IMG/VR virus record: IMGVR_UViG_3300033153_008530
Location: 23,012 to 87,011 of that record
Length of the DNA: 64,000 nt
Source of the DNA: a virus
Strand: one strand, 5' to 3'
Below, in pieces: positions 4,321 to 50,799 of this stretch; position 1 is the stretch's first letter; the number at the start of each line of letters is the position of its first letter. The notes beneath the pieces are model-generated. The model was not told the origin of the DNA and made no database searches. It saw only the letters and a program-made list of their open reading frames with translations. The translations under genes were made by a program, and so were the position numbers.

Positions 4321-4327
4321 TTAACAC

Positions 4328-4359
4328 TAATGAGGAGGTACTAACCTGCCTCCTCATTA
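4328..4359 (+). promoter_or_regulatory. Intergenic 13-bp stem-loop (weak terminator or RNA processing/stability site)
   Basis: TAATGAGGAGGTA-ctaacc-TGCCTCCTCATTA with one G-U pair; no U tract follows on the + strand. Confidence 0.6.
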
Positions 4360-4373
4360 ATAACCTTCTAACT

Positions 4374-5940: not shown

Positions 5941-5958
5941 TTTAAAAAATTAATAATT

Positions 5959-8242: not shown

Positions 8243-8244
8243 TT

Positions 8245-9237: not shown

Positions 9238-9246
9238 TTAAAATAT

Positions 9247-9837: not shown

Positions 9838-9868
9838 CTAATATTGCACAAACCAATAATTATATATC

Positions 9869-10318: not shown

Positions 10319-10339
10319 TTATATACTTTTCAACATATT

Positions 10340-10365
10340 AGCACGGATAGTCCGTGCTTTTTTTT
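10340..10365 (+). terminator. Intrinsic terminator
   Basis: AGCACGGA-tag-TCCGTGCT stem running into a T8 tract. Confidence 0.8.
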
Positions 10366-10383
10366 GCTTAAAATTTAAAATAT

Positions 10384-12294: not shown

Positions 12295-12295
12295 A

Positions 12296-13782: not shown

Positions 13783-16700
13783 TTATCTAAAACGTTGTCT
13801 TATTGCATTATGATTTTTAACAGCATTTGCAGGATCAATACTTGAACCTGTTATACCAAATAGTTTAAAGAAGTGATTCCAAGCTTTTGCAGAACCTTGT
13901 TTCTGCCATGAATATGGGCCAACATCTTGTTGATAGAATCTTCTATCATCTCCTGTAAGACTCTGATAAAAGTCAACTACGAGTTTGCCATAACCATCAA
14001 GAGTAGGGCCAAATACCACTGAAGTAACATTCTTTAATTGTAATAAATCTCCAAGACCATACCCTGGTAGTGGAATAAATTGTTCATTCTCTGCACGTAT
14101 ATTCATTAACAACCATAATCCATGATTGGCCATCCAGCCAGTCCATTGAAAGTCTTCATCTTTACCTTGTTTTGTTCTTAACTTCTTATATTTCTCCTCA
14201 TCGTCTGGATCCCATCCATATAGTAATGCCATTAATAATACAAGTGAACTCAACATAGCAACTTCAACTCCTGTTTTCATTAATGCCTGTTTTTCTTCAG
14301 GTGTAGCATACATCATTTCTTTCCCTCCTGACTTAAGTCCTCTTCCTAACCACTTCATTGACCTTACATAATAACCCATTGATGATTCTCCAAGGCCAAT
14401 ATTATATCTTTCCTGTGGATCCTTCCAACTTCCTTTATATGACCATCTATTTACCATCATTGGTACAAAATATCTTCTTAAGAAACTTACCATTCTAAAA
14501 GCTAAGTATCTCTGAGCTTCAGGTTGATCAAATTTTGAGTATGCTCCTTGTAGATTATTGTTCACCATATGAATTCTATTTTTCATTTGATGAAATTTAG
14601 TACCACCTAGATCCCATGACTTATCTTCTACGTCATCTCTTAATTTAATTTGTTGATCAACTGTCTCATACGCATGTAATAATGATATTTCAGTACCATC
14701 TTTAAGTTTTACTTTCTGATGTTCCATCATCCCTGCAAATGTTTGGAGTGTTGCTTCAATCTCCATCCACTTTCTTGGTGAGTACATCCATGATGTTCCA
14801 ATGGCATCCATTAAAAACCCTCTAGAAGATGAATCTCCTAGTTTAGACTCAGTTCTTCCTTGGACAGCATCATACTCATCCATTAACTGTAATTTATGTG
14901 TTTTTGGACCACGTTTATAAATTTGTGCACTCATTTCTATTGCTGTTGCAGCTGACCATACTCTCCCTTTTGCATATGAGATTGGTGTCATGTATCTGCC
15001 TGCTGTTGTTTCAATAGTTGCTTGAAACATGGCCCCATATCTGTTCTTTAATGCTGACGGTATGTTTAATGCAAAGAAAGCAAACGAGGCACGTCCCATA
15101 ATTGCATTTACTGTCTTATGTAATGTATTATTATCTTTTCCCAATCCTGTCAATGTCTGACCTTCAAATTCCCTTTCATAGAAACCATTCACCATCATTG
15201 CTCTAACATTCTTATCCTTCTTATTACGATATGTAAACATACCTTTATTGAGAAAGTTTTGTTTCTGAATCTCTTTTATCTGATTTGCAGGATCATGTAG
15301 GGTATCTCTTAATGCTGCTGCAACTGGGTTGATCTCAGTTTTCTTAGATTGCTCATTTAAACTCTGATTATATATTATAAGTGCTTTTACTACATCTAAT
15401 GAAACCTGATCTAAAGGTATATCATATATACCTTTTACAGGTATATTTACAGTCTTATCAAATAAACCAGCATTTGTTAAATTATCTGTCTCATCATAGT
15501 TTAAATCATTATAATGATCATATTCTGTCTCAACGAAAAAATCCTTTATTCCCTGCCATATGGTTTTAACTTTACTATATGCTTTTTTACCAGTTCCTTT
15601 GGCTTTTAAATATTCAAAGTTTGACATTGGGAGACGTGGTACATCCAAATATAATCTACTTTCTTCTTCTGAATCACTTTGAAAGTCTAATGAGGCTTTT
15701 ACTAACTTTTCAATTAATTTAAAACGCTCTGGATCTTCACGTTTAATTCTAAAATAATCTTCATTTCTAAAGATATCAGGTACACCTGGGGCTAGATCTT
15801 TCCCTTCTTTTGGTAACCATCTTCCCCTATTGTCAACGGTCTCTCCAACTATTTTTGGAGTTTTTAATTGAATAGTTTCTCCTGTTTCCTCATCCACATA
15901 TGAATCCTTTACTTTTCTATCAAAATACTCAAAGGTTGGGACACCTACAATTGGATCTCCTATTTGCTTACCTTCTTTATCTCTTATTATTGTTGTTTCA
16001 TAATACTCTTCATCATTTGGTCTTACAACTGTCCATGCATAAACAATGTCATATCTTTTAACATGAGATTCACTAGCTTTATCATAAACCTTTTTATCAA
16101 TATGATTCTTATCAAACCAGTCTTTAAATTTATCATCTTGAGATAGCATTTTAAGAACTAAACTTCTATTATTTAAAAATGCAGCAACGTTTGCTTTGGT
16201 TACTTCATTTGTTTTGAGTTTTAGGATCATATCTGTTGTATCAACCTTACTTAAGTAGTTATTTATTATATCTAAATAATATTCAGTTGGCTCTTTATGT
16301 TGAAGTTCATTTAATTCACCAAACAAAGAGAATAACTCAGATCTTTCAAATTTATTGAGACCAATTTTTACTTTCTCACCTGTTATAGGATCTATAGACA
16401 TTCCCTCATCCATAATTTTTCTAAGAACAGACCATCTATCTATTTCAGATTGAGTAGGTTGTATATCATTTTTGAGTTTATATTGTATTTCGTCAAACTC
16501 TTCTTTTTCCTGTAGTGTTAATCCGCTATATCCGGCAACTCTTTCTTTTGCCTCAATTAATTCTTCTTGTAATGCTTTAATATGTGCTATGAGTTTATCA
16601 GCCATATCTGTTCCTTCAGGTTGACCATCAACATCTTTATATGGCCCAATTGAGTCAAAGATTTGAGTATATATATCTGAAAGGTCAAGTTTTTCCTGAG

Positions 16701-19700
16701 TTTCTTCTGGAAGTTTTGATATAAGCTCACTTAATCTTGCACTTATGTCAGCTCTTGTATCATAAAATTCTTTTTTAACCTGGACTCTTGTATTGTTAGT
16801 TACCCACTCTTCTAATTTAACTTTAATCTCATCTTCATTAAGACCAAATCCCTCTAACTCTGTTCTATAATCCTCATACTTTCTTTGCCATAGGTTTGGT
16901 GACTCAGTGTATTCAAAGAACTTACGTGAATCTTCATTATATTGTTTTAATATCATAGCAACATCAAGATCATTATGCGCATCCTTTGCTCCTGCAATCT
17001 TTCTATTACCGTTTAAGTCTGTTAATGATGATAATTGTCTAAGTTGTCTTAAAAGAGCTTTTTTATCATCTAAATTCTCTATTTTTTGTGTTTCATTGCC
17101 TGCTATTCTATCTAGATTTGACAATGCTTCTAATATCTGTTGTCTTCCCGTCCACGCCTTTTGACCAGCAGGTGTATCAAATACTTGCTGTCTATCATAG
17201 TATACTTGGGTAAAAGGTCTCCAATAATAATCTCTTAAAAATTTTCTAAATTTGTTTGATGCATCAATAATACCTGTTTTATTTCCAGTTTCAACAGCAT
17301 CATTTTTTGCTTGTTGAATTGCATTAAGATGTTCCTGATATGCTTTCCTATTTCCAATAAAAGGATTTAAGAATGTATAAATCTCTCTTTCTTCCCATGT
17401 TACTTCACCCTCTTCAGTCTCAACTCTTTTAAGAAGGATGTCTACAAATGTTGTTTTTTCTCCTATTGCTCGTGGATTCATACTTACATTTGCAGCTTTA
17501 ATATCAGCCTCCATTATCTTAAGAAATCCGTTTGTTTCTTTGTTTGTCTTGACAATTATATCAGATATTGCATTTTTTACAAAGACTGCTAATGACGAAA
17601 TAACAGGATCTGCATTATACATAAATCCCTCAAAGAAACTATTTGCCCAATGGGCATCTCCTAATTCTCCTTTAAGAGTCTTGAGCATTTGGGGTTTTGT
17701 CAAGTTTAACTTATCAAAATCTGCTTTTAATTTTTTTAAGTATTTATCTCTTGCTTTTCCTTCTGGTCTTACTTCCTCAGCATGTTTTTTTAATTCTTCA
17801 TAACGTATTTTAATATTTTCTAACATTGGTTCAAGCTGCTCCATTAAAGCATCTTGTAAACCATATAGATATATACCCTTTATTGTTTCCTGAGCATGGG
17901 TGATTTCTGTTCTTATATCTTTTATGATATCAAAAAATGGTGAACGTCTATTTATAGACTTACCTTCTTTATTTAATTGTTCTATTATAGATGTAAGATC
18001 CTTATCAAATTGATCCCAGTACTTAATTATCTCCTTATAATAAAAGGCTTTCTGTAAGTTATCTTTGTTATTTGGATCTCGTGATATCTCATCAAGATGA
18101 TCATTTATCTTTACTAACATATCTCTAGTCTGAAGCATGTTGGTTACTAGACTTTCTTGATGTTGTCTCACATAATCAACGTCCTCACTTAATTTCATCA
18201 TCTCTTTCTCTAGATTCTCTGCAGATAGGTTTTCCATTGTTTGATAGTTACGTAAACTCTTTTGTATCCCAGATAAATAACCACGCCCTTCTTCTGTAGC
18301 AAGTATTTCTTTCATGGCCTCATAATTCTTATTATTAAGAACTTCTTTTATCTGTCTACTAACTGTATCATAATATGCATTTGTTATCTGTAACAAATCT
18401 GAATTTTTTAAATTAGCAAGACTATCAGAAAATTTGTTTAAGTTACTTGCATATGCTGCAACATCTTTATCTGTGATTATCTCAGTGTCAATCTGAAACT
18501 GCTCACTAACTAACATATCTGCAAGTTCACTAAGAGTTGTATTTTCAGATAGATTTTCAATTTTTACTTTTCCAAACACTTTTCTTAAAAGTTGTTTTAA
18601 AGCAAATACTATCTTATTAATTACTTTTTGAAATGCTGATGGGGCTTTTAAGTCTTCTGTATTAACTTTACTCTTCTCCGCAAGGGCCCTAACTATGGCT
18701 TCTTCTTTGAAATATTTGTAAGTTTCATCATATTCTTCCTTTAGATTCTCAATTATCTCTTTTCCTTCCTTTGTTTTTACTAGATCCTCATAGATCTTGT
18801 TAAACAATCTGGGATTCTGAGCCCCAATTGAGCGCACCAATGGATGAGCAAACTCATGTAATACATCTTGTAATGATGCATTATCTCCTACTAAGAACAC
18901 TTTACCATCAAAGAAGAATGCATTCTGGCCCTCATATGGATATATTGTATTTTTTAAAAGGTCAACAGCCTGTTCAGATGTAATAACATTAAAAGGAATG
19001 CCTAGATTAATAGAAAGATGATTGGCAAGCTTGTAAAGGATCTCTTTAGCTTTGAGTTTCTTTTGTGATTCAACATCCATTTCTATTGGTGCTACTTCAG
19101 GATCCTTTTCTTCTAATATAGCTTCTACAACAGTTTCTTCAGTAGTAGATTCCTCTAATCCATACATTAATGGATTTTTATAATTATAATTTGATAAATC
19201 AACTAAATAACCACCTGCATCATTTTTAATTCCAGATATTTTGTGTACATATTTTAACTTAATACCAGGCATTGATGAAAGTGTGTTATAGAGAGCACCA
19301 GTAGTTAAAGGTTGATTGTTTGTTTCAGCAAAAAGAGCCTTTACATATTTCACCATCTTACTATTGTCCTTGTATTTATAAATATTTAAAGCCTTTTTTA
19401 TATCTTCAATTGTTCTTGGAAAATTTATTTCCATCATATCAAAAGTAACGGGATCTTCATCATATAATTTATCAAAAATCTGTCTTATAATATTATCTAC
19501 TTTTTCTTGTTTAACTTGATTATATTTTTTAGTATAGTCTTTTTTACTTATTTTTTCACCATTTTCTCTATATACTGGTTGTTTTCCGTCTTCTAAAAAT
19601 GCAGTATATTTTTCAGCTCCAAATTCAAAACTCTCAAAAGCTACAAATTGTGCTACTTCTTCTGGACCTGCATATATTAAAGCTGTTTGTTTACTTGATT

Positions 19701-23043: not shown

Positions 23044-23044
23044 A

Positions 23045-26000
23045 TTATGCTAAACATTTGTTTTTTAATTCTTGAATTTCATAATCACTAATAGGTTGAT
23101 CTTTTTGGATTATGGCTCTTATACTGGTAGATCTTAATGATCCAGGATTAATATAACCAAATTTATCATAAAGTTTACTAGATAAGTGAACATATGTTTT
23201 TCTTGATTTTACATTATCTAACAATTCTTTACCATATCCAGTTTTAATTAAGGCAATAGAATTGTTTCCCTTCATTAAATTAGCTATCTTATCAATAGCA
23301 TTATCAATTAAGATCTTGTTTTCTTCTAATGTTTCATCAGTCATCATCTTTCCATCGTTTATTAATGGGATACCAAGACTGTTATCAAACTCACTTAATG
23401 ATTCATCTCTTCCTTTTTTTCCTCTCTCATTATATATAAAGGTTACTCCACCACTCTGAGTTGCTAAAACTTCATATTTACTTGATGATGTTTGTGCATC
23501 ATATATATAAACATCTTTAGTTTTATACTTTTTTAAGGGTATTCCTTCTTTAACTGGTACTTTCTGCTCAGATGTCATGGTACTTGCCAAAGTTTTATCA
23601 ATCATATAATTTTTAGAGCGCATGTTTAATGATTTAGTTATTGCCCTATTCATTGTTATCATTCTATTTGTATAAAGTGTAAGAATCTCTTCATTTAGAT
23701 TCTTAATATATGATTCATAAGGACCTTTAAGAAGTAATAATATATTACGTTGATCAATAATCCTAGTCATTGAGAGTGGGCTCTTTGTATTTAACCCGGA
23801 TTGTAAGAAGGCGTAGTAGTTAAATCTCTGAAAGAAGTTAGTTATTTTTAATTTATCCTCTGGATCATCTATTTTTATTTCACTTGGATTACTAAGTTCT
23901 AGTAGATTCTCATGATAAACCTCTACTGTATCTGGGTCTAAAACAGTTTCTTTCAGTTTCAAGTTCTTTATTCTTTCACCAGGCTTTGCTTTTGATTGGA
24001 TAATACTTTCCATTAATGGATAATCTCTTGATAATGAGGGATATTTAGCTTTAATATCCATAAACTGATTAACCATACTATTATGTCCATAGAACATATT
24101 TCTAATATTAAGAGTATTGTCAAGAGCTTTGTCACGTAGTATCTCTTCGTAAGTGAGTAATTTCATTCTCTTCTCATACATGTTATCAGTTTCTCCTTCT
24201 TGTCTTTCTGTTTCAATAGAATCAACTTGATTCATGTTTCTCTTAAGTTTTTCTTTAAATTCTTCTTTTTTACTTTCTTCTTTAAAAGAAATAATACTTC
24301 TTAAGTATTCTCTTTCATATATAAATTTGTAAAATTCTTTTTCACTTAAAACATCTCTTGTTTTAAAAGCATCTGGAGTGAGAAGAGCATGTCCTGATAA
24401 CACCCATTCTTTCTTTACACCTTTTCCTTCTTTGTTAATCTTCTGCACCCATCTAACTCTTTTATTTTGGTCTGCATATGTTTTGTTCTTAAACATATCA
24501 TTAAGAGCTTCTTTGTTAACATATAATACATTATCTTTTACATAAGCGCCTACAGTTAATACATCTACTTCTTCAACTCCAATCTTATCATTAACTGTTA
24601 GACTTCTATATTCTTTTGTATTCTTATTAAAACCTTTTATTGAATTTTGGAATATAAAGCTTACAAGATCATTTTTCCATGCAGCAACAAACTTCTCTTG
24701 TTCATTCTGACCATAGGTTGTTCTTACTGCACCTTTTCCAGCGGCTGTATCCAAAAAGTCATATAAGAATTTATTAACTAATTCATGATTACGAAGTGGG
24801 AAATATTTACTCCATACCTCTTCTTGAAAGTCAGGTACTGAGGCAAATGAAGATATTGGACTTTCTGTAAGCAATCTATCTAAAGGTCCTCTTGGAAACA
24901 ATCCATATTTGTTAATTGTTCTCATGTTTCTTCTTCTCTCCTGAACATTATATAAAGAGGCTGCGGGATCTGTATCTAAATTTGTATTAAGTTTTACATC
25001 ACGTACAGAACCAGCTATTAATTCTAACTCAATAAAGTGTAAGAATGCATCTCGTGCTGTATCATTAACAGTTCCATTTAATGCAATCTCTTTAAGTTTA
25101 GCAGGATTAAAGTTTGATGTACGTCTCTGAGCTGTAAGAAGTATGTTTGGTACACTAGGTGTATTCGTTGCATCTAACCCTAATGTGGAATAATTATCAA
25201 ATCCATTACGTGCAATTACATTTACCTTTGCTTGATATCTAGTATACTGAGTTTCATCAGGGGCCATTCCTAGAGGCATTGAAAATGAGCTACTCATAAT
25301 TCTCTGTTCCTTTACGTACTCTTTTATAAGAGGATTAGAAAGGAACATAACTGCGTCAGTCAATGATACACCTGATTCAACTAATAATAATAATATAGGT
25401 GTTAACTCAGTATTACCCTGAAGATGAAAAATCCAAGGATCTTTTTCAACATCAACCCAACCATTTATTAATTGTTCTAGTATTTGAGCTATTTCAACAC
25501 CGTCTACATTATTTATATTAGATAAAGATATTACGTCATTCTTACCAACTTTAAAAGTATTATGATCTAATAAGATTCTTGTATTAAACTCACTCTTGTC
25601 TCTCATAAAAGTTGGCATTAAATACATACCTACTCTATTAAATAATGCATTATAAGTATTTGCAATTGCTCCTTGTCCTAATGTCTTTTTACCAACGTTA
25701 AAGGCCTCATGAATATCTGTATTAAATCCTATTTCTAATATTTTTGTATGACTAATGTTTTCTGCTTCTTCACCACGTATCTGATCTACAACATCCATTG
25801 CAAGATGATTTGAGTTTGGACGAACAAGACTTATAAAGTTATGTGGTAATTCAAGAATTTCTTTCATCTTATACATTATCTCATTCTCCACTCCTCTAAC
25901 ACCTTCAGTAGATAAAATTACTTCACCTTCTTTATTTCTTCTAATATTAGGCATCATTATAGTTAACTTGTCTATGTCAAAATCAGAACCTGATTTAGAA

Positions 26001-29000: not shown

Positions 29001-32000
29001 GCAAATTTTTTCATGACAGAATTTATGTCAAGATAATTTCCTTCTGTATCTGGTTTTATGTGTGGAGACTCTTTTGTTGTTGCAAAAGAATTCATCCAAT
29101 CAAATCTTATTCTTCTCCAATTTGCAGAGGCATTCCCAATTTTATCCGTGTATGACCATGCATTTTCTGTATCTCCAAATGCACCTTCCCTTGTTAAAAG
29201 TGTTCTATCCATTGTGTATTGGACCAATGGAATTCTTGTTCTGTTAAACGCTTCAACAAATTTATTCCATAACATGGCATCATAGTATGTCTCATGACCA
29301 GGAGTTTCATCACCTTTTTCATTTATAACAACAGGTTTACCAAGGCGCTCTATAAGTTGTTTATAAACTGGAAAGTCTTGAGAATCCTCTTCTAATAGAT
29401 CATATATTTTATTTGAGTCTCTTACTCCCTGTAATAGAGATAATGTATGTTCCCAAGTTACTTTAAAGTTTGAAAGCTTTTTTACACCAAGTTTGTTATA
29501 CACACCGTCAGGATCTTGTGGTGTCACTTCAAAGAGAGTCCTTAAAAGATAAAGCACCTCATTTGAAGCTAAATCTTTTACTGAAAGTTCATTACCTTTT
29601 CTGTCATGACCTTTAATTTTGTTAGATGTCTCCTCTTCAGAAAATTCTGTAATGAATTTATCCTCAAGATTTAAGATTTCAGTTCGTTTTTGATGAAAGG
29701 CAATAACACCTTTAGTTTGTTTTTTAGTTATGAATGATTCAAAGTCACCAAAATTATCAATTGCAAATGTCAATAGATCTATACTATTCTTTGTTACTAT
29801 ATCCTGTGGCTTCTTTTCTTCTTTTGTTCTAAGTTCATTTAGTCTTTCTATGACATATTCATATGCAGTATTTAATCCTGTCTTACTTGATAATAATTTG
29901 CTTATAGCTGCACGTCCTTTCCCGCTTACAATAAACTCTCTATTAGCTTTATCTATAAGTTCTCCAATTAATGAATCAACTGTTTCACTGATTAAAATAG
30001 AATCAGTAAAAGATATTTGTTCGTCATTAAGTCCTTTTATACCACCCTTATCAAGCTTTGCAAACATCATATTATTTAGAGATGGCGTATAATCATTTAT
30101 GTCACCAATATATAATTTGTCATAAAGATCTTTAACTCCTTCAACACTTTGTTGATCAATAACAACTTGGTCAAGAGTTGAATTTCCAAATAGTTGTTTT
30201 AGAAAGTCTAATATCTTTTGGAAAATAGTCTTGGCAGCTGGCGTATTTATTTTACGCTTGCCGTCTGAAAGTACATATAACCTAAAATCTTCAGCTAAAT
30301 ATTCTTCTAACATATAATCAGAAGCCTTTTTAAAACTGATTTTATCACCTAAATAATTTGTAAATGTTCCACTTCTCTTCTTTAAACTATCATATAGATC
30401 TCTTTTTTGTTCAACTGTAAGATACATTTGACTAAATCCGTGCCATGCCTCATGATAGAGATCTGTATAATTAGAACCTTTGTATAATATTATTCCGTTT
30501 TTAGTAAATTCTGCAAAGTTTTTGGAATTGACTATATTGAACGCAGCCTGGTATGGAAGATTTTCTCGCATTGGATGGTTGTTATACCACTCTTCAGCAT
30601 CTCTTATTTGTTTTTTAGTAGCTGCATTATTAATATTTTTGTTTTTATCTAACTTAAGAAATCTATTAAGTGCACTGTCCCTGTTATTGTCAGTGGGATT
30701 TTTCGTGACTGCATTGTAATCTTTAAGAATATTTTGAGTTAACTCATCTTCTAATTCTTGTTCTTCTAATTTAATTACTACAGCGGAGCTCTTTTTAATA
30801 TTTGGGATTTCTCTTCTCTTTATGAAATCATCTGCATTATCTTTATTACCAAATCTACCTTCAATTCTTTTATTACTTGAGGGAACCTGGATTACATAAT
30901 CAGCATGCTCAATAAAATTATACGTACCAGTCAAAATAACTTTACCTTCTTCTTTTAGATCTTTTATTTGCCCTAAGACATCATCTTGTACAAGCTTGTA
31001 ACTTACACCGCTATCTTTTTTCCAATATTCTAAAATAAAATTCTTATCCTTTTTCACTTTAAAATCAGGATCTCTTCTTTTTATTTCAGCTTTTAGTAGT
31101 TCATCCGCATCAATAACACCTTCCATTGTTGGGACAAAAGTAGTCTTACCTGCTCCAGGAGTTGCATAGATTAATTTACCCGTGTATTTTGATTTAGATT
31201 TTTTACCAGCTTTTGGAGTTGAAATAGAAGGATAAGTTGCTGTGTTCTCTAATACTTCACCAGGTTTATATTCAGTGTATATATCATATATGGATTTCTT
31301 TTTTAATGGTATAGTTAAAGAACCATCAGAAGATTTTGGAGATTCAGCTGTTGAATATTCTCTCTTACCAATCCCCTTATTTCTTATTAATTTAGTTGTA
31401 ACTGGAAATATTTTAAGTGTATCTAATACTATTCCTGTACGTTGTCTGAATAACTCAGCGTAGGCATTTAGTTGAATCTCGTCTTGAGCTTGATAATTAT
31501 ATTGTTTGGTTTTATAGGCAATACGTCTATTAAGACCAGATGTTTTAAGATCTACAAGATGAAAGGTTTTATTCTTTTCATGATATAATAACATGTCAAT
31601 TGTACCAGCATAATTAACATTTCCAAGTGTCCCCCATAGGGTTGGTATCTCAGTATATATTCTATAATTCTTCTTAAGTCTTTTCTTTGCCTCAGCATAT
31701 ACATCATAGAGTTCACCTAAAAACACATCTGAAAATACCTCAGTATTTTTTCTTTCAGGGTGTTCAACATACATTTTTTTAAAAGCCTTATATGATGTTA
31801 TCTGATCAGATAATGTAGCTCTAAATAAATCATCAGCAATTGTACCTCTTGTACGTGCTTGTCCTTCATCTCTAGGAGCATCAGCTGGATACGGAATAAG
31901 ATCTCCTTTAAAGGCGCTTACTCTTCTAAATGATTCTCTAGCTTCATCTATATAAAATTCAGAATCTTTTTTATTTACAGTTAATTTCTTTTCTGAAAGT

Positions 32001-33799
32001 GGTTTAAGTGCTTCAGTTGGATTATCTACTTTGCTTATGATCAGATCATCTGGAGTGCTCTCAATTATATTCTTTTTCTTTCTTCCAATTTGTTCTAACG
32101 CCTTATTGGACAAAGCATATGTAAAATATGCATTTAACTTAACAATCTTCTTTTCTTTATTTATAGCTGTTTTAGCTTCAAAATTATCTGTAATCCATAG
32201 ATTATACTCCATTTCTGTTAGAGTAACAATATTATCCTCAACACTAAAGCTATTAAACCTCTGATTGATAAACTTTTTATTTATGTTCAGTCTTGAGGCA
32301 GATGTATTGTTTTTTCTTTCTTCTTGAAGATATTGTATAATCTTATCTCTTACTGCTTCAGGATTATCTGATTTACTTATATTTTCCTTTTTAAACTTAA
32401 ATATAATTGATTTACCTACCTGATCTCTTCTAAAATATATACCATCATACTTTGGGAAATATATAGAGGATAATAGTTCAAATCTCTGTTGAGGTCTTAA
32501 TTCTTCTAAAGTTCCTCTTTTGGTTTTAATGTTAAGAGGCATTGTCATCATACTTGCCAAGTTAAAGATCTGATCATCAATCATCTTTGGTCTGTCAACA
32601 TATATAGGATCAGTACTATTTTCTTCATAGTCAAAATATGTGAAACCTTTATTTTTTCCAAAAGAATTATCAAGTGCTGGATATGGAAGGAAACCAAACT
32701 CTCCAAAATCTATTTCAGAAAGTTTTGTGTTTCTTTCATATGATACAGGACGATATCCTAAACTGCTACTTTCTAATATTGATGCAGTTACAGTTTCTCC
32801 ATTACTTACAGATCTTTGTATTGCTACAATATCTTCTAAACCTTGATATTGAAGTTTCTTAACATGATCAGTTTGCTTTTTAGTTGGTGTATCACCATAC
32901 ATTTTTCTTGCAACCTCATTAACTTGCTGAATATCTGATCTCTCCAAAAATAATTTACCATCACTTTTTCTTATAGGCGTTCTCATTTTAATAGGAATGA
33001 CATAACCATTTTCTTCATTGGTTATTTTTAACTCATCATTAAAATATATAGGATGTCCTTCACTATCAGTAATTATCCATACAACACCTTTTTTTGTTTT
33101 TTCAGGATTTTTTGTAATATACTGTTGTTCACCTTGGGTCCAATTTTTAAGAGGAACATCAGCTGCTAAAACTGCAGTTATATAATAACCCATCTTATCC
33201 CCCGTGTCATCACTACTAATTCTTATTTTACTTATAATATCTCTTATAACAGCATATCTACGTTTTGAAGCTGGATCTTTACTTGGTATATTAGTAAATT
33301 TTCCTTTTTCTGTTTCAGGAGCTTCATTACCTGTTGTTGTATTTGAAGATATTGGTCTTGCTTCAAAATTTCCTTCAATGTCCAGCTCTTCATTGGTAAG
33401 ATCTTTTCTCTCCTCTGGATCAAGCATATTTAATATTCTCAATCTTGTTACAATAATCTCAAGTTCTTTAATATCTACTTCAGGATATACATACTTAAAT
33501 ACATTATCAAGATTTTCAAATGACTCTGTCATCTCAACTAACTCACTGTACTTATTACCAACGTATTTACCTATGGTATTATCATTTGCTGCCAGCTTCT
33601 TTACAAAATCTGGAACCAATTGAACATATGCAAGAACTTTTGCCTTTTCTTTTTTAAGGTCATTAGATGCAATGTTCTCTATATGATTAATGATGTCATT
33701 AAGGTTATATTCAACCTCCTCATTCATCATATTTTTAAGTTTTCTTGCAGTAATAGACAATATTGCTTCTATATGTTTATCTGGTAATCTACATTTCAT
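23045..33799 (-). CDS. Giant single-chain virion RNA polymerase (phi14:2 gp66-type) with accessory domains
   Basis: RIPVQG..GSDFDIDK catalytic motif (25967-25990) and DGQGWIT; also a PD-(D/E)xK domain, P-loop ATPGAGKTT and zincin HEAWH..EEYLAE. Confidence 0.9.
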   Translation of the reverse strand: MKCRLPDKHIEAILSITARKLKNMMNEEVEYNLNDIINHIENIASNDLKKEKAKVLAYVQLVPDFVKKLAANDNTIGKYVGNKYSELVEMTESFENLDNVFKYVYPEVDIKELEIIVTRLRILNMLDPEERKDLTNEELDIEGNFEARPISSNTTTGNEAPETEKGKFTNIPSKDPASKRRYAVIRDIISKIRISSDDTGDKMGYYITAVLAADVPLKNWTQGEQQYITKNPEKTKKGVVWIITDSEGHPIYFNDELKITNEENGYVIPIKMRTPIRKSDGKLFLERSDIQQVNEVARKMYGDTPTKKQTDHVKKLQYQGLEDIVAIQRSVSNGETVTASILESSSLGYRPVSYERNTKLSEIDFGEFGFLPYPALDNSFGKNKGFTYFDYEENSTDPIYVDRPKMIDDQIFNLASMMTMPLNIKTKRGTLEELRPQQRFELLSSIYFPKYDGIYFRRDQVGKSIIFKFKKENISKSDNPEAVRDKIIQYLQEERKNNTSASRLNINKKFINQRFNSFSVEDNIVTLTEMEYNLWITDNFEAKTAINKEKKIVKLNAYFTYALSNKALEQIGRKKKNIIESTPDDLIISKVDNPTEALKPLSEKKLTVNKKDSEFYIDEARESFRRVSAFKGDLIPYPADAPRDEGQARTRGTIADDLFRATLSDQITSYKAFKKMYVEHPERKNTEVFSDVFLGELYDVYAEAKKRLKKNYRIYTEIPTLWGTLGNVNYAGTIDMLLYHEKNKTFHLVDLKTSGLNRRIAYKTKQYNYQAQDEIQLNAYAELFRQRTGIVLDTLKIFPVTTKLIRNKGIGKREYSTAESPKSSDGSLTIPLKKKSIYDIYTEYKPGEVLENTATYPSISTPKAGKKSKSKYTGKLIYATPGAGKTTFVPTMEGVIDADELLKAEIKRRDPDFKVKKDKNFILEYWKKDSGVSYKLVQDDVLGQIKDLKEEGKVILTGTYNFIEHADYVIQVPSSNKRIEGRFGNKDNADDFIKRREIPNIKKSSAVVIKLEEQELEDELTQNILKDYNAVTKNPTDNNRDSALNRFLKLDKNKNINNAATKKQIRDAEEWYNNHPMRENLPYQAAFNIVNSKNFAEFTKNGIILYKGSNYTDLYHEAWHGFSQMYLTVEQKRDLYDSLKKRSGTFTNYLGDKISFKKASDYMLEEYLAEDFRLYVLSDGKRKINTPAAKTIFQKILDFLKQLFGNSTLDQVVIDQQSVEGVKDLYDKLYIGDINDYTPSLNNMMFAKLDKGGIKGLNDEQISFTDSILISETVDSLIGELIDKANREFIVSGKGRAAISKLLSSKTGLNTAYEYVIERLNELRTKEEKKPQDIVTKNSIDLLTFAIDNFGDFESFITKKQTKGVIAFHQKRTEILNLEDKFITEFSEEETSNKIKGHDRKGNELSVKDLASNEVLYLLRTLFEVTPQDPDGVYNKLGVKKLSNFKVTWEHTLSLLQGVRDSNKIYDLLEEDSQDFPVYKQLIERLGKPVVINEKGDETPGHETYYDAMLWNKFVEAFNRTRIPLVQYTMDRTLLTREGAFGDTENAWSYTDKIGNASANWRRIRFDWMNSFATTKESPHIKPDTEGNYLDINSVMKKFASPSGNPFVFLRDIGIDLDTRNIKLKQNINSKSRYRVFVEEIVKRLKYFNEKGTKVRNIIEALEYDIIEKGRVVHKGHKGNLKELALLQLKYSDKYSSAAVTNALGDIQYEYSLQSSLSVIINEINDSKSFNELINKPFMSYLSSKRNPWTYIYQDENGQNKSTSQWLNSLFDFENGGIKRKGVTLDLNNLSGNQMVVDNLITDIGYSSTTVEADKHTKLITDLHYTLLSGTPVSGSPELLRHASAGSAYSAGISEAHTLGSDKHLYVDTKDFFTNTGEDKAVEIIIPYIQAELTRINKADQVKNVPGYNKRAKEFSIFDKILSNPLKKELKDLNVELLEELKTNQDLYNRLHDEITKYFNSQVKDVTERYRDLNYISDSLIKQISYQNHSATTPQIREAIFESFVYNKWIRDFETLIFFYGDPAQYKNGMEFFKRNKMVASTGRFPRTDQAIINYIRNNMKGDYSIKRGIKDKDFDGTFKSAVFQDHIVSSVYVKEYEKAFRDYYSTVAELKGKKLENAVYHAIKPYKEMNEGDGQGWITFDAYRIYQFAIGKWSNTQEQLYKKIVAGEYVDPRLVTEFFPPKKVQYFGPLKTDGLPVIAGHKFSLMPLIPNVIENTRLQDLHDSLVDQKFDYALFESGSKISTITKDGTYDEVYADPIKRIFKSVESADQYTPNVMFLEFLKDQLDIDSKHKTKVTFSTQLRKLIETGLVEGGVPIDFMPGTSLTKRRVEWKKIEKKGLQVMKDESDYFSKYKEYEELLDKLMKYKKDQLLKDAGWSYNEKGKLEGNLQDLLNKVIIPNLERKDITASELDVLEVDDKGDLVFPFGMSVNAESIENILFAVVNKQLVRQKVNGQMLVQISTALFTNNEATPADRNFTNPTDAEIAKWGSSDLPTYSMFDAEGNIRKTISAMKVKIALQGGFIKLLGLTHNDGERIKTRLRLNEMIKDEQWLNRDDNRKLITMVGVRIPVQGLNSAEFMEVYEFLPESAGNIIIPPSEIVSKSGSDFDIDKLTIMMPNIRRNKEGEVILSTEGVRGVENEIMYKMKEILELPHNFISLVRPNSNHLAMDVVDQIRGEEAENISHTKILEIGFNTDIHEAFNVGKKTLGQGAIANTYNALFNRVGMYLMPTFMRDKSEFNTRILLDHNTFKVGKNDVISLSNINNVDGVEIAQILEQLINGWVDVEKDPWIFHLQGNTELTPILLLLVESGVSLTDAVMFLSNPLIKEYVKEQRIMSSSFSMPLGMAPDETQYTRYQAKVNVIARNGFDNYSTLGLDATNTPSVPNILLTAQRRTSNFNPAKLKEIALNGTVNDTARDAFLHFIELELIAGSVRDVKLNTNLDTDPAASLYNVQERRRNMRTINKYGLFPRGPLDRLLTESPISSFASVPDFQEEVWSKYFPLRNHELVNKFLYDFLDTAAGKGAVRTTYGQNEQEKFVAAWKNDLVSFIFQNSIKGFNKNTKEYRSLTVNDKIGVEEVDVLTVGAYVKDNVLYVNKEALNDMFKNKTYADQNKRVRWVQKINKEGKGVKKEWVLSGHALLTPDAFKTRDVLSEKEFYKFIYEREYLRSIISFKEESKKEEFKEKLKRNMNQVDSIETERQEGETDNMYEKRMKLLTYEEILRDKALDNTLNIRNMFYGHNSMVNQFMDIKAKYPSLSRDYPLMESIIQSKAKPGERIKNLKLKETVLDPDTVEVYHENLLELSNPSEIKIDDPEDKLKITNFFQRFNYYAFLQSGLNTKSPLSMTRIIDQRNILLLLKGPYESYIKNLNEEILTLYTNRMITMNRAITKSLNMRSKNYMIDKTLASTMTSEQKVPVKEGIPLKKYKTKDVYIYDAQTSSSKYEVLATQSGGVTFIYNERGKKGRDESLSEFDNSLGIPLINDGKMMTDETLEENKILIDNAIDKIANLMKGNNSIALIKTGYGKELLDNVKSRKTYVHLSSKLYDKFGYINPGSLRSTSIRAIIQKDQPISDYEIQELKNKCLA

Positions 33800-33813
33800 A
33801 ATCTCTAACTATT

Positions 33814-36800
33814 TTAAGTAGGTGAACAAGGGGGTTCATCTTCTAATGCACTAATATCCTCATCATCAGTTTTATCATCAGATAGTTTAATTATCTCTTT
33901 AACTTTATCACTATCATCACCTATATCTAAAGCAGCATCTTTAGTTTCATTTATACTTTCTGCATCTTCTCCTGTTATTACCTCTGTTATCTCTGGTTTA
34001 ACAAACTTAGTCCCTTCAACAACACCTCTTATTTGTTTATCAAATGTTTCTCTTTTTATTACTAATTCATTTCCCTTTTGATCTTGTGCAATAATTTGGT
34101 TTTTAGAAACTTTAACTACCATCACGGGACCTGATATATCTTTACCGGGATTTATTGGACTAAGAAGCATTTTTGCTTTTACATCATCAAAGCTGAATTT
34201 TATTAGTTCTTTCTTTATGTTATACATATCTGTAATTAAATCTGAATTAAGTGATCTACCATCTATTATTATACTACTTCTTAATTTTGAGTTAAGTGTT
34301 AAGAGTTTTTCAGCTGCCTTAGACCATTTCTCTAAATCTTTAAAAGTTTTAATATTTTTATATTGTGATGATAATACTCTATGTATTTGCATATTAATAT
34401 CAATATCTTCTGGATCAGCTTCTTTAATCTCTTTTTCAACTTCAACAATATCATATGCATGTAATTCTCCTTTTTTTAACCATGTTTTTATAGTTGTGTC
34501 TTCAGTATCTACAATAAGATCATCAACAACTATATCTCCTACTGGGATACGCCCATGATGTACTAATGTATATACTTTATCTCCAATTACTATATGACCT
34601 ATTTGGTTTTTTGTTTTTAAACCAATCTGTGTAGCTCTTGTTGCATTTACAACTAAAACCTTTCTTCCTTCTTTTTCTTGTATATTTTCAATTTCTTCAG
34701 GTGTTAGTATATCTGAACTTATACGTATACCTAATTTTTCTTTTTCAATATCTGTTAATCCTTCAAGTTCTTTTGCTGAAGGCATTCCTTCTTTTAATGC
34801 AATGAGCTCATTATTTCTACGATCACTTATCTTTTTTATAAGCGCTTTTTTGCTACTTGCTTCAAGTTGAACTTTTTCTCCATTACTCTTTTCATAAATT
34901 GTTGTAAAAACCTTACGTGATCTTTCATCATCTAAATCTTCTATGTCTTCACTGATATTATCTATAGCATCTTTAGCTCTTCTGGCTATATCATCTTTTT
35001 TAGATAATTTTTTAGATTTCTTTTTAACTTTTTTCTTATCTGTTTTAAGACTCTGATTATATTTTGCAATAATTACAGCGGCAGAATTTGTATTTTCTAT
35101 ATATTCCTTTAATCCAATTGGTTTTTCATCAATTGCTTCTTTTCTCTTATTATGCGTTTCTAAACCTTTTTTAAGTTGCTCTATTAAGGGAGCTGGCAAA
35201 TCTTCAATCTTTGTGTCAGGAGTAAAACCAAGATCAGGTCCATCATTGTCCTTTGGATCTTGTTTACCAGTGTTTGTCTGATCAATATACTCTGTTGTTA
35301 AAGCTATTGTTTGATCTAAAACTGTATTACCCGTTTTGATACCTAATGCTTTATTTAAGAATCTTGTAACAGCTTTAAGGAATTCTTGCCAAGCGGATGT
35401 TTTTGCATCATCCCATTTGATTTCTTTTAATAACTTTTGGAAGTTATCATTTGTCATTGCTTCAGCAACAAATTCTTCAATATCTTTTAACCCATAAGGA
35501 ACTATACCAATTTTACCAGTATTAGCTAAATAATAATCAACTGTTTTTTTCCATATTTCCTCTATTGCTGTTCTATATTCTGTATCTGTTCTTAATCCTT
35601 TAACAGTAAGTCTATGTATTATTTCATGAAGAATTGTATGCTCAATTGCGTTTTGTCCTGCTGTATAGTCAATAGAAGAATATCTTACATCTATATATAC
35701 GTCACCAGATTCTGTATCATAAACACCGGGTGTTGAAAGGTTATTTACAAACTTGATTGTATCAGTTGCGTTTGTTTTCATTAATAATGCAGCCGCTAAC
35801 TTTTTCTCTCGTGGTGTAGATAAAGACCCACTGTCTATAATTGACTGTAATACCACTCTTTGTAATACTGTACTTTCTGCAGAATCAGGATCAAAACCAA
35901 ATTGCTCTGCATAATCTTTATAAGTACGTTTATCATTTTTATATTTACTTCTTCCTCTTGGATCATATCTTGTATCAGCTCTTGCTTCAGGAATTGGCTT
36001 TCCAGTTACTTCACTCCATTTATTGACAATTTCTAATATTTTTACCCAATCTTCTGGATGAGTGTCTTGTGTTATTTCTTCAAGATCTGTTACTCTGTAA
36101 AAGGTAGCTGGTAATATCTTATCTGTTTTAAATGCTTGTGCATCATCTGGATCAAAAAAGTATCCTGCTTCATAAAGAGACTGAAACAAACCATTATCAT
36201 CTGATATATCTTCGTAAAGATTTAATAAGTGAGCTATATCTTCCTTTTTACGTTTGTATGTTTCCTTCATTATAGAAGCTTCTCTCCTAGCGCTATTGAT
36301 CATAGGGGCTCCTGATGGATCTAGTAGTATGTTAACTGAGTTTGTTAGATTTATACTCTCATTTTCTAATTTATAGTAATCTGCTAGTTTTTCAAATGAA
36401 GCTTCTATATCTTCATTAAATACATGACCACTATTTATTTTAGCTATAACTTCTAAATAATTTTTATATTTATCAAATAACTTTTCCTTTGAAGTCATTT
36501 GTTTTTTAACCTGATCAAAATCAAACTCCAATTGACCAGCTTCAACTTTAGCATTAGTAATTGATTCTTCTTCTAAATTGTTTTTATATTCCTCAATTGA
36601 ATCTTTTAACTCTTTTAAAGCATCTAATTTTAATTGTTTAGACTTTTTAACTGCTTTAAATGTTTGATCACCCTCTGAAAATTGTTCAACTTCTTTCTTT
36701 AAGAGCTCTATTTCTTTATAAATTGAACCAAGCGCAAGCTCTGTTGATTCATCTTTTGAATCAAATAAAAGATTAAAGTCATGGGCTTTAGCTTTAGATA

Positions 36801-39078
36801 CAGGTATATCAGTTGATATATCCTGATAAATAGAATCCATTCTTTCTAATGCTCTATCAAATGAATGTGTCATAAAAACTGCACGTTTTAGTGCTTTGTC
36901 ATATGCAAGTTGACGTATACCTTCATCTTCCCATTCTTTAGAACCAAAATCAAATTTGTTTGCATTAAAAGGATTAGTAAATCTTTTTGAAACATATTCA
37001 TATCTTGCTTCTATTCTTTTTGATCTTTCAATAGTCTTATCAATTTTAGCATGAAAATCTTTTTTAGAAACAGCAAGTTTGTCTAATGAGTAACCATAAG
37101 CTTCTTTTAATTCTTCATTGCTCATGTTTTTCATTCCTTCTAACCTTTCTCTATAGAAATTCATTTTTCCAGTTTGAATTGCCGTTACAACATGATTATA
37201 AATACTTTCATCTTTTAAATCTTGCCATGCTTTTCTATCACCATTACGTTCTGCTTCATTCATAGCTGATGCAAGCTTTCTGTTAAGAGACATATTTTCC
37301 ATATCAGGTGCAAAATATTTAAATGGATCAGCATACATCTGATTAAGTTGTTCTGCTACTTTGTCTCTATCTTCTTTACGTTTAGCATTTTTAGCTTTAT
37401 ATCCTTCTTTATCAGACATATATTCTAATGCTTTTGCGCTATATGTAGGTATTTTAATTATTGGTTGTACAAGACCTCCCATTAAGAAACCAGACATAAA
37501 AATTTCAAAACCTTGTTGAGAATACTGTTTAGATATATTATTTGCAATATTTGTATAAATACCACCTCTTGCTGGATCATTCTTATATAGTTCAGTATAG
37601 TAATCAGTTGCAGTACCTCCAATTATTTCCTGCATAGTCTCTTGAATTCCTTCAGCAAAGTTTGCTTTAAAATATGATAAACCTATTCTACCATATGTTC
37701 CAGGCATATATACACTTTTTGCAAGATTTTTAAAATTCTTTTCCTGAAATGAAAAGACATCATCAAGACCTTTTTTTGCTGCTTTTCTATTATATACTAA
37801 CCTTGCACCTAATGCATGTTCAAGCGCTCCTCCTCCTGCTTTAGTGTAAGGTCTAAAACCTCTGAACATATTGTCAAACACTATTCTATTAGAAAATAAA
37901 ATAACTGGTAAATTCCACCCAACTGTAGCAAATCCTGCTTTTTGACCTGTCTCTGCTATTTCTCTTGCTTCCTCAGAAGTTGGATTTTTTCCATTTTCTT
38001 GATAAAAATCATTAAATAACTTTGCAGATACTTCATTAGCTACTAATCCACCTTCAAGTTTAGATTCTGCTAATGCAAAATTAATTTCACGTACATCTCT
38101 ATAAAAAGATCCAAAAAAACTATGTGCTTTTGTAAACTCAGTTATGTTATCTGCGTTTCTAAACCCTTTAACATAATCAAATGTTCTTTCAAAAGGATTA
38201 ATAAATCTACCCGCACCTCTGCCTAAGTTTTTCCAAAACTGTCTTGCTGTGCTAACATCATTTAATCCTTTAAATGCTTTTGTTGTTGACTTTACTGCAT
38301 TTCCAAATTTATTTACAGGTAATCCTTTTGCAATTCTACCCATACCACTTGCAAAACGTGAGGCACCTAATCCAAATGTAGAACCTCCTGTAAGAGCGCC
38401 TACACCTAAAAGAGCTGCTTCTTCCATGGCCATTTCTGCAAGAATACCAAATGTATGTGCACTATTTAGAATCAGATTGTTTGTGAATGCACCAACTCCT
38501 CCTCTTGAACTATACCCAACTGCCATTGCTTTAGCTTGTTCCTCAGCTGTTTCAAGATCTGGAGACATTGGTCTACCTGTGAACATATCACCCCAACTTC
38601 TAAAACCACTTTTAATACCACTCCACATTAAATTAAAAAACTGATCATTACCTCTTTGCCAATCTTCATATGGAGTACTATTTTGATTATAGTAAGAGTC
38701 ATTATTTCTCCATGGATTAAAATCTAATTTTTCAAAAGCTGGATGTGTATAATATCTAGCAAAGTTAGCTCCAGTATAACTTGCATCATAATATGTATTA
38801 GCTCCCATTTTATAGGGGTTAGCAGCATGTGAAGGTGCAGTTTGGAATGAATTCAACATATATGCATTCATATCATCTGGTGAAGGAAGTTCAGGGGGTT
38901 GTGAAAGATTACCTGCATATCTGTTTGACATGGCGTATCTTGAAGGCGCATTTGTACCATACTGGTCTGGTGTAAGAATACCTTGTTGCTGTAATATATC
39001 GTCTACTGCAAGAGAGATCTGATTAGGTCTGTCCCCTAACATCTTATCTAAAGGATCTATGTTATTATTATCTGACAT
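33814..39078 (-). CDS. Large virion/ejected protein (1754 aa) with zincin domain and hydrophobic N-terminal helices
   Basis: LHEIIH..EEFVAE (near 35620); Gly/Ala-rich segments AALLGVGALTGG and IFMSGFLMGGLV; directly upstream of the vRNAP gene. Confidence 0.75.
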   Translation of the reverse strand: MSDNNNIDPLDKMLGDRPNQISLAVDDILQQQGILTPDQYGTNAPSRYAMSNRYAGNLSQPPELPSPDDMNAYMLNSFQTAPSHAANPYKMGANTYYDASYTGANFARYYTHPAFEKLDFNPWRNNDSYYNQNSTPYEDWQRGNDQFFNLMWSGIKSGFRSWGDMFTGRPMSPDLETAEEQAKAMAVGYSSRGGVGAFTNNLILNSAHTFGILAEMAMEEAALLGVGALTGGSTFGLGASRFASGMGRIAKGLPVNKFGNAVKSTTKAFKGLNDVSTARQFWKNLGRGAGRFINPFERTFDYVKGFRNADNITEFTKAHSFFGSFYRDVREINFALAESKLEGGLVANEVSAKLFNDFYQENGKNPTSEEAREIAETGQKAGFATVGWNLPVILFSNRIVFDNMFRGFRPYTKAGGGALEHALGARLVYNRKAAKKGLDDVFSFQEKNFKNLAKSVYMPGTYGRIGLSYFKANFAEGIQETMQEIIGGTATDYYTELYKNDPARGGIYTNIANNISKQYSQQGFEIFMSGFLMGGLVQPIIKIPTYSAKALEYMSDKEGYKAKNAKRKEDRDKVAEQLNQMYADPFKYFAPDMENMSLNRKLASAMNEAERNGDRKAWQDLKDESIYNHVVTAIQTGKMNFYRERLEGMKNMSNEELKEAYGYSLDKLAVSKKDFHAKIDKTIERSKRIEARYEYVSKRFTNPFNANKFDFGSKEWEDEGIRQLAYDKALKRAVFMTHSFDRALERMDSIYQDISTDIPVSKAKAHDFNLLFDSKDESTELALGSIYKEIELLKKEVEQFSEGDQTFKAVKKSKQLKLDALKELKDSIEEYKNNLEEESITNAKVEAGQLEFDFDQVKKQMTSKEKLFDKYKNYLEVIAKINSGHVFNEDIEASFEKLADYYKLENESINLTNSVNILLDPSGAPMINSARREASIMKETYKRKKEDIAHLLNLYEDISDDNGLFQSLYEAGYFFDPDDAQAFKTDKILPATFYRVTDLEEITQDTHPEDWVKILEIVNKWSEVTGKPIPEARADTRYDPRGRSKYKNDKRTYKDYAEQFGFDPDSAESTVLQRVVLQSIIDSGSLSTPREKKLAAALLMKTNATDTIKFVNNLSTPGVYDTESGDVYIDVRYSSIDYTAGQNAIEHTILHEIIHRLTVKGLRTDTEYRTAIEEIWKKTVDYYLANTGKIGIVPYGLKDIEEFVAEAMTNDNFQKLLKEIKWDDAKTSAWQEFLKAVTRFLNKALGIKTGNTVLDQTIALTTEYIDQTNTGKQDPKDNDGPDLGFTPDTKIEDLPAPLIEQLKKGLETHNKRKEAIDEKPIGLKEYIENTNSAAVIIAKYNQSLKTDKKKVKKKSKKLSKKDDIARRAKDAIDNISEDIEDLDDERSRKVFTTIYEKSNGEKVQLEASSKKALIKKISDRRNNELIALKEGMPSAKELEGLTDIEKEKLGIRISSDILTPEEIENIQEKEGRKVLVVNATRATQIGLKTKNQIGHIVIGDKVYTLVHHGRIPVGDIVVDDLIVDTEDTTIKTWLKKGELHAYDIVEVEKEIKEADPEDIDINMQIHRVLSSQYKNIKTFKDLEKWSKAAEKLLTLNSKLRSSIIIDGRSLNSDLITDMYNIKKELIKFSFDDVKAKMLLSPINPGKDISGPVMVVKVSKNQIIAQDQKGNELVIKRETFDKQIRGVVEGTKFVKPEITEVITGEDAESINETKDAALDIGDDSDKVKEIIKLSDDKTDDEDISALEDEPPCSPT

Positions 39079-42428: not shown

Positions 42429-42463
42429 AGTCTGCTAATTTACGTAAAATCTTTTTTGTTTAA

Positions 42464-42480
42464 TAAACTTTAAAAGTTTA
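42464..42480. promoter_or_regulatory. 17-bp palindromic box TAAACTTT-A-AAAGTTTA, copy 1
   Basis: Intergenic, 35 nt upstream of the ATG at 42428; identical copy at 50591-50607. Confidence 0.6.
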
Positions 42481-47034: not shown

Positions 47035-47044
47035 AATTTTAATT

Positions 47045-50545: not shown

Positions 50546-50590
50546 GATTTATGCTATATATATAATATACGAAATTTTTGTTAAAACCTT

Positions 50591-50607
50591 TAAACTTTAA
50601 AAGTTTA
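50591..50607. promoter_or_regulatory. 17-bp palindromic box TAAACTTT-A-AAAGTTTA, copy 2
   Basis: 45 nt upstream of the ATG at 50545; its first three bases on the - strand are the TAA that ends the read-through frame. Confidence 0.6.
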
Positions 50608-50799
50608 CATATACTCAATTTCATATCCTTGTTTTTCTAATTTTTTTATTTCTGAATTAGAGAGATTATACTCTCCTCCTTCTTTATAATCTATATTAAT
50701 TTTGTTACCCTCTCTATCATATCCTTGATAAAATTGATTATTAGGTGTATCTAGTAAATCATACTCAGCAGAAGGTATAGACCATAATGGACTTTGTAA

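Follow-up and report, generated by a model that had tools for sequence, protein, structure and literature searches.

Cysteines at the facing ends of neighboring giant proteins in the RNA polymerase cargo block of a divergent crAss-like phage: a candidate head-to-tail disulfide chain

The RNA polymerase cargo block and its four cysteines

The DNA analyzed here, a stretch of 64,000 nucleotides (nt) taken from the IMG/VR virus record IMGVR_UViG_3300033153_008530 (positions 23,012 to 87,011; referred to as the window in the following), is part of an 87-kb record rated 72% complete and represents the RNA polymerase cargo block of a divergent crAss-like phage. Three giant genes follow each other on its minus strand, namely gene A (33814..39078), called as an open reading frame (ORF) encoding 1754 amino acids (aa), gene B (23045..33799; 3584 aa), encoding the virion RNA polymerase, and gene C (13783..23043; 3086 aa), whose product features a zincin-type HExxH motif. 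The three genes abut, being separated by spacers of 14 nt and 1 nt, and a DNA polymerase gene adjoins the block on the opposite strand. In the reading discussed below, A, B, and C would be the first, the middle, and the last member of a chain, and the distribution of their cysteine residues is the subject of this analysis.

A scripted count revealed only four cysteines in the 8424 aa of A, B, and C, all of them encoded by TGT codons on the minus strand and all located at termini that face a neighboring protein. The sole cysteine of A, C1751 (33826..33828), is the fourth residue from the C-terminus (position −4, when counted from that end), and it is faced by C3 of B (33791..33793). The second cysteine of B, C3582 (23054..23056; position −3), faces the N-terminus of C, where the only cysteine of that protein, C5 (23029..23031), opens the conserved N-terminal motif C-P-N-x-N. 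The two outer ends, i.e., the N-terminus of A and the C-terminus of C, do not contain any cysteine. All counts and coordinates given for the three proteins in a preliminary description of this DNA were reproduced by the script. For comparison, the plus-strand genes at positions 1–13645 encode 1.31% cysteine, corresponding to approximately 110 expected cysteines in 8424 aa, and the probability that four randomly placed cysteines each lie at most five residues from a different facing terminus is about 3e-12. The terminal cysteine pattern is highly non-random.

The assignment of B as the virion RNA polymerase, already made in the preliminary description, is borne out by its match to PDB entry 6VR4, the virion RNA polymerase gp66 of phage phi14:2 (phmmer, E=1.7e-24). 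Its catalytic motif DFDID occupies residues 2606–2610 (25970..25984, minus strand), and all three aspartates (D2606, D2608, and D2610) are conserved without exception in alignment A1, which comprises 36 sequences. The C-terminal 1000 aa of B matched the phage collection at approximately 25% identity, and a tblastn search of the same collection with its first 1000 aa returned no match. B also contains an HExxH motif of its own (HEAWH, residues 1116–1120; 30440..30454, minus strand), of which H1116, E1117, and H1120 are invariant in alignment A1. The conserved residues E1165, E1166, and E1170 lie nearby. With this motif, the polymerase of this lineage appears to harbor a metalloprotease-like module besides the zincin motif found in C.

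The latter motif (HEFAH, residues 1396–1400; 18844..18858, minus strand) is represented by H1396, E1397, and H1400, which are invariant together with E1448 in an alignment of 38 sequences (A2). This agrees with the zincin-like domain noted in phi14:2 gp65 (Drobysheva preprint, 10.1101/2020.03.07.982082). Furthermore, crAss001 gp49 aligns with the proteins encoded downstream of the fused cargo genes in the genomes cr118_1 and cr113_1. C accordingly appears to be the counterpart of phi14:2 gp65 and crAss001 gp49. Gene A putatively corresponds to phi14:2 gp67 and crAss001 gp47, as judged by position, size, and cysteine pattern only; it had no Pfam, PHROG, or PDB match, and its 20 homologues all belong to the lineage of the window. 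Overall, Pfam and PHROGs yielded nothing useful for A, B, C, and the block of ORFs upstream of A. The gp47, gp50, and gp49 proteins of crAss001 were identified as virion components by mass spectrometry (PMC10172136), as were gp67, gp66, and gp65 of phi14:2 according to the annotation of its genome. By analogy to these two phages, A, B, and C are presumably packaged in the virion and ejected.

Terminal cysteines in relatives with separate, fused, and split genes

To evaluate the conservation of the pattern, 120 listed homologues of B (27–47% identity, 3000–5500 aa), 86 homologues of C, and the 20 homologues of A found besides the window's own record were considered. Nearly all full-length B homologues possess exactly two cysteines, at positions 3 to 6 and −1 to −7. 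The C-terminal cysteine is present in 119 of the 120 sequences, the sole exception being a truncated fragment, and B homologues lacking the N-terminal cysteine (among the homologues without it are P0042, P0044, and P0109) represent fragments, fusions, or a few unresolved cases. In alignment A1, C3 of B forms an invariant and C3582 a nearly invariant column, and C5 of C is invariant in alignment A2; B C3 and C C5 thus rank with the catalytic residues. The A homologues carry a lone cysteine at −1 to −4 in 17 out of 20 cases and never near the N-terminus (0/20). Among the C homologues, approximately 78 of 86 have a cysteine at positions 2–9, which is mostly the only one of the protein and opens the C-P-N-x-N motif. 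Those without it look N-terminally truncated, and a C-terminal cysteine is absent from true C proteins, save P0193.

Searches for related IMG/VR loci with one protein at a time, using the C-terminal parts of A and B, did not identify any relatives. An alignment-based scan of IMG/VR resulted in 80 loci with 10-kb flanks, 77 of which are distinct, and their ORFs were called and subsequently assigned to the A, B, or C family by BLAST. Within these 77 loci, cysteines were present on both sides of the A–B junction in 56 out of 56 cases and on both sides of the B–C junction in 67 out of 67 cases, and they were missing on either side of the junction between A and its upstream neighbor (46/46). The N-terminus of A was free of cysteine in all 56 proteins, as was the C-terminus of the last member in all 71, and internal cysteines amounted to 20 in 524,628 residues. 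The preliminary description had proposed that terminal-only cysteines at facing ends be looked for in orthologous gene trios, and this expectation was confirmed at every A–B and B–C junction counted. The exact position of the residue varies within narrow limits. In 57 related A proteins, it was located at −1 (31 proteins), −2 (11), −3 (6), or between −4 and −10 (the others); the N-terminal cysteine of B occupies position 3, 4, or 5 in 65 of 66 related proteins and its C-terminal one positions −1 to −8, and the cysteine of C was found at positions 3–6 in all 77 related proteins, mostly at 3 or 4.

Two loci deserve separate mention. In L081, A is split at a 4-nt overlap devoid of cysteines, which may represent a frameshift. 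L079 initially appeared to contain a B protein without an N-terminal cysteine, a reading that was rejected because a normal M-V-N-C start is present; a frameshift in a poly-A run (8176-8400), caused by misassembly or by a slippery site, removes the first 48 residues of the polymerase gene.

Relatives encoding the same modules in fused or split form provided a further test of the proposed pairing, the cysteine pair being lost at the joints of fusions and gained at splits. In A–B fusions, both cysteines of the joint are gone and the far C-terminal one is retained. This applies to P0103 (4625 aa) from the lineage of the window, whose sole cysteine is at −3, and P0089 (4550 aa) of the same lineage likewise has no cysteine near the joint. 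In the Suoliviridae fusions of cr118_1 and cr113_1, the gp66-like part begins at approximately residue 1750, where no cysteine occurs. Their C-terminal cysteine lies at −4 or −3, and the protein following the fusion begins with M-I-C-P-N or M-Y-K-C-P-N. Flavobacterium phage Fpv1 encodes a 4401-aa fusion with a sole cysteine at −2, and the next protein features Cys3.

Additional members of the putative chain, either split off or inserted and ranging from 242 to 754 aa in size, possess cysteines at both ends in every instance. A protein of 574–591 aa located between B and C in four loci (L053, L061, L080, and L085) falls into this category; it corresponds to an N-terminal module that P0225, P0220, and P0221 carry in fused form, and these three have only Cys4 or Cys5. 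Proteins of 242–261 aa in L068, L079, L083, and L084 contain exactly two cysteines, Cys3 and the C-terminal residue itself, and match the C-terminal tail of longer B proteins. The 754-aa extra member in L086 and the 501-aa protein situated between A and B in L089 follow the same rule. Taken together, first members carry a C-terminal cysteine only, last members an N-terminal one only, and middle members both. This bookkeeping points to a linear chain in gene order, and it argues against a metal site composed of four cysteines as well as against partners outside the chain.

The pattern was also found in cultured and classified crassviruses. In phi14:2, the sole cysteine of gp67 is the last residue, gp66 has Cys3 and a cysteine at −2, and gp65 has Cys3. 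In crAss001, gp47 carries its sole cysteine at −3, gp50 has Cys5, one internal cysteine, and one at −9, and gp49 has Cys5; DAC15 resembles crAss001. The A-type gene is encoded on the strand opposite to the B-type gene in crAss001, DAC15, and IAS virus and has kept its lone C-terminal cysteine, which means that the pattern is not a by-product of nucleotide signals in the start and stop regions.

A two-member version exists in a p-crAssphage-like Carjivirus, where a 1956-aa protein with a cysteine at −2 is followed by a 4091-aa protein starting with M-S-C. In the record of CrAssphage sp. C0531BW4 (L091 17631-17700), the annotated non-ATG start of this 4091-aa “RNAP subunit” lies 21 residues upstream of M-S-C, and the cysteine rule suggests that the shorter start is the real one. 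An 857-aa Carjivirus protein contains no cysteine; it follows a 1304-aa protein (L091 5213-9127) with a lone cysteine at −2, and the chain rule leaves this unpaired C-terminal cysteine unexplained. Between 10 and 27 internal cysteines occur in the largest cargo proteins of cr273_1 (L009), cr131_1 (L006), and IAS virus (L093), where the terminal pairs are partly lost. Cysteine avoidance in the cargo block is thus relaxed in some gut crassviruses. Several of these records need stop-codon recoding, as indicated by many in-frame stops under table 11, and the split in IAS virus falls within a stretch of ambiguous bases.

Upstream of A, the window encodes a block of five large and nearly cysteine-free ORFs (39084..59215, minus strand; 6620 aa). 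Its only two cysteines form a C-x-x-C motif at residues 18 and 21 of a 1166-aa protein (47045-50545, minus strand), and no PHROG match was obtained for the five ORFs. The block probably comprises further virion or ejected proteins. It is located outside the chain, since cysteines are absent from either side of its junction to A. The protein directly upstream of A (39084-42428, minus strand; N-terminus M-A-T-Y-I) has no cysteine in the window. Many of its relatives possess exactly two, at positions 128 and 134 (C-x5-C; L015, L032, L041, L061, L071, L086, and L088), and crAss001 gp45 and phi14:2 gp69 contain one close internal pair each (390/398 and 369/378, respectively). A C-x5-C motif also occurs in the N-terminal region of the corresponding L030 protein (20/26) and at positions 21/27 of a 5′-truncated reading frame upstream of A in L013. 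The cysteine-poor block ends sharply at the ORF 59215-63882 (minus strand; 1555 aa), which encodes 15 cysteines and matches PHROG 37948 (virion structural protein). The boundary between virion proteins that are ejected and those that are not may lie here.

Coupling of the cargo proteins and alternative explanations

What was observed directly is the cysteine pattern, the extent to which it is conserved, and the way in which it appears at gene splits and disappears in fusions. Based on these observations, we infer with good support that neighboring cargo proteins are coupled via their facing terminal thiols. By analogy to cyanophage A4, the coupling would be a disulfide formed once the proteins are enclosed in the capsid. 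The reading that we consider probable is that A, B, and C are joined by head-to-tail disulfides as one thread for co-packaging and coupled ejection. The cargo proteins would be kept free of cysteines except for one thiol near each terminus that faces a neighbor, and in the particle, the C-terminal cysteine of A would pair with Cys3 of B and the C-terminal cysteine of B with Cys5 of C. The bonds, most likely disulfides, would create a single linear thread of 8424 residues, representing the covalent equivalent of the single polyprotein encoded by some relatives. Since the cysteines are located at the very ends in each of the families and at each newly arisen split, the joined product would topologically be one thread, like the fused polyproteins; such a topology favors co-packaging at a fixed ratio and a coupled, ordered passage. 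In detail, packaging as one thread would set the ratio of A, B, and C to 1:1:1, and the three proteins could leave the capsid via the tail one after another. Because the cysteines lie at the extreme ends, the width of the joint would scarcely exceed that of two extended chains. Once in the host, the three proteins would be separated by the reducing cytoplasm. This role, that is, co-packaging at a fixed ratio, ordered tail passage, and cytoplasmic reduction, is speculative.

In one virion, this sequence signature has been seen to form an actual disulfide. In the pre-ejectosome of cyanopodophage A4, as determined by cryo-electron microscopy, a disulfide connects Cys1715 of gp27 to Cys5 of gp26 (PNAS 2025, PMC12002296). 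In the genome of the Anabaena phage A-4L (Saffermanviridae), the two genes are adjacent, with gp27 located upstream; gp27 (1717 aa) has its sole cysteine at −3 and gp26 (1114 aa) its sole cysteine at position 5. Lone facing terminal cysteines are thus a common feature of both systems (−3/+5 in A4; −4/+3 and −3/+5 in the window). A blastp comparison of A4 gp24–gp33 with 222 proteins of the A, B, and C families returned no match at E≤1e-3, indicating that the window would resemble A4 in its working, outside the protein families of that phage. The A4 authors also speculate on a chain reaction at ejection (PMC12002296). In contrast to the crAss-like block with two to four links, A4 shows one link between two proteins and no RNA polymerase. 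Moreover, its bond was described as locking a folded pentameric ring, and neither as a conserved rule nor in connection with fusions and splits.

Closer to the window in gene content are the cargo blocks gp67–gp66–gp65 of phi14:2 and gp47–gp50–gp49 of crAss001, each consisting of three proteins with the RNA polymerase in the middle and the zincin-motif protein in the last place, and sharing the terminal cysteine pattern. The proteins of the window greatly exceed theirs in length and share only a distant relationship with them. The fused “polyprotein” RNA polymerase blocks of crAss-like phages (Yutin 2018, as cited in the Drobysheva preprint, 10.1101/2020.03.07.982082) comprise the same modules head to tail, with P0089, P0103, cr118_1, cr113_1, and Fpv1 being examples. 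Their link is a genetically encoded peptide bond, permanent unless cleaved, whereas the one proposed for the window would be post-translational and reversible. In N4-like phages (N4 gp50; DEV gp71, gp72, and gp73), cysteines are likewise suppressed to an extreme degree in the giant virion RNA polymerase and the proteins ejected along with it. This was ascribed to the passage through the periplasm, and the proteins reportedly lack cysteine altogether, also at the termini (PMC11445570). Their polymerase is unrelated, being a T7-like single-subunit enzyme as opposed to the two-barrel type (PMC13434306).

Several points weigh against the proposed disulfide thread. The cytoplasm in which the particles are assembled is reducing, and many hosts are anaerobes. 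For the crAss-like phages, the bond is a prediction from the sequence pattern, and the cryo-electron microscopy map of crAss001 does not resolve the cargo proteins (PMC10172136). The A4 disulfide locks a folded pre-ejectosome ring, and its purpose may therefore be structural and not related to threading; by the same analogy, stabilization of a folded pre-ejectosome would be an equally concrete role, and one compatible with threading. Furthermore, the fusion in cr273_1 lacks the C-terminal cysteine, yet the next protein retains Cys3; cr131_1 and IAS virus carry many internal cysteines, so that the rule erodes in some gut lineages; and the lone cysteine of the 1304-aa Carjivirus protein has no facing partner. 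No thioredoxin or glutaredoxin gene and no Erv1/Alr thiol oxidase was detected in the 87-kb record, which is 72% complete. The oxidase model did not match any control genome either, rendering this blank uninformative. Disulfides do occur elsewhere in crassvirus particles, namely in the gp57 dimer, the tail hubs, and the rings (PMC10172136).

Among the alternatives, it is unlikely that the terminal thiols act elsewhere than between A, B, and C in the virion, be it by periplasmic oxidation after ejection to lock an envelope-spanning assembly, by binding to another virion or host partner, or by serving as a site of modification. The lack of cysteines in ejected proteins has indeed been linked to passage through the oxidizing periplasm (PMC11445570), and the unpartnered cysteine of the 1304-aa Carjivirus protein as well as the one-sided junction in cr273_1 would fit such a role. 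However, the cysteine-free outer ends (0/56 first-member N-termini and 0/71 last-member C-termini), the presence of both cysteines in all inserted members, and the loss of exactly the two facing cysteines in fusions are expected only if neighbors pair mutually. Partner thiols are also scarce in the other cargo-block proteins of the window, with 2 cysteines in 6620 aa, and in A4, the bond already exists in the virion. A variant of the proposed coupling in which facing cysteines bridge neighbors through a shared metal ion (e.g., zinc or copper, with extra ligands nearby) instead of a disulfide is quite improbable. Such a bridge could form in a reducing cytoplasm and would be gained and lost with splits and fusions in the same pairwise manner, and a histidine often stands beside the C-terminal cysteine of B in relatives (endings K-H-C-F and S-H-C-Y). 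Nevertheless, no conserved ligands flank the cysteines across the families (the endings in the window read P-P-C-S and N-K-C-L), two thiols alone constitute a weak site, and the only solved example of the signature, in A4, is a disulfide. A single Zn(Cys)4 site common to the four termini is excluded because fusions lose exactly two cysteines and keep the other two.

It is hardly credible that the terminal cysteines serve no purpose by themselves and are relics of polyprotein cleavage, by-products of translational-coupling signals of the start and stop regions, or chance occurrences. The genes do abut with spacers of 14 nt and 1 nt, and fused polyproteins are encoded by some relatives, but the joints of the fused forms are devoid of cysteines, meaning that the residue is not part of a cleavage site. 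A-type genes on the opposite strand retain it in crAss001, DAC15, and IAS virus, its distance from the terminus varies (−1 to −10 and +2 to +9), and the residue is kept at 25–50% protein identity. The low chance probability calculated above for the window alone likewise speaks against coincidence. Cleavage relics, a nucleotide signal at the gene junctions, and chance were all rejected, as they are contradicted by the comparative data. A split intein or trans-splicing pair was also rejected: the cysteines lie 1–10 residues from the C-terminus and at positions 2–9 of the next protein, leaving no room for intein halves (approximately 100 aa and 35 aa), which would flank the junction and require cysteine as the first intein and the +1 extein residue, and no Pfam domain was found.

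A bolder generalization of the disulfide thread is put forward tentatively and is somewhat less likely to hold than to fail. According to this view, the RNA polymerase of all crAss-like phages might enter the host as the middle car of a train of covalently linked proteins. Disulfides would connect two to five cargo proteins in the order of their genes, and the resulting chain of at most about 9,000 residues would pass N-to-C via the tail. Cytoplasmic thiol reductases of the host would uncouple the members, so that the first step of infection would be gated by the host redox state. The same device would have arisen independently in A4, and terminal cysteine pairs would then represent a general mark of linked ejection proteins that can be read from the sequence.

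Significance for crassvirus biology

Terminal cysteine pairs in crAss-like phages were not described in the literature searched, whose coverage was limited so that absence remains unproven; in particular, neither the crAss001 atlas (PMC10172136) nor the phi14:2 preprint (10.1101/2020.03.07.982082) mentions the cargo cysteines. The preliminary description had regarded the mechanism as undescribed, which agrees with our search as far as crAss-like phages are concerned, whereas a two-protein version is known from A4 (PMC12002296). Compared to the one link of A4, the features that appear to be new are the multi-link chain, the position of the polymerase in its middle, and the conservation across crAss-like phages.

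The crassvirus cargo that is stored and ejected amounts to approximately 5 MDa and includes the polymerase that starts the infection, and it cannot be seen in the map of crAss001. A sequence rule for touching ends translates into a concrete cargo topology, with A being followed by the polymerase and then by C, and it explains how relatives can encode the same modules in fused or split form. No other phages of the human gut are as abundant as crassviruses. If the proposed chain is true, it would expand the single A4 disulfide into a chain with several links that an entire viral order has conserved, and it would provide annotators with a simple means to recognize co-ejected proteins. If release of the cargo needs reduction in the cytoplasm, the redox state of the host would be linked to the first step of infection.

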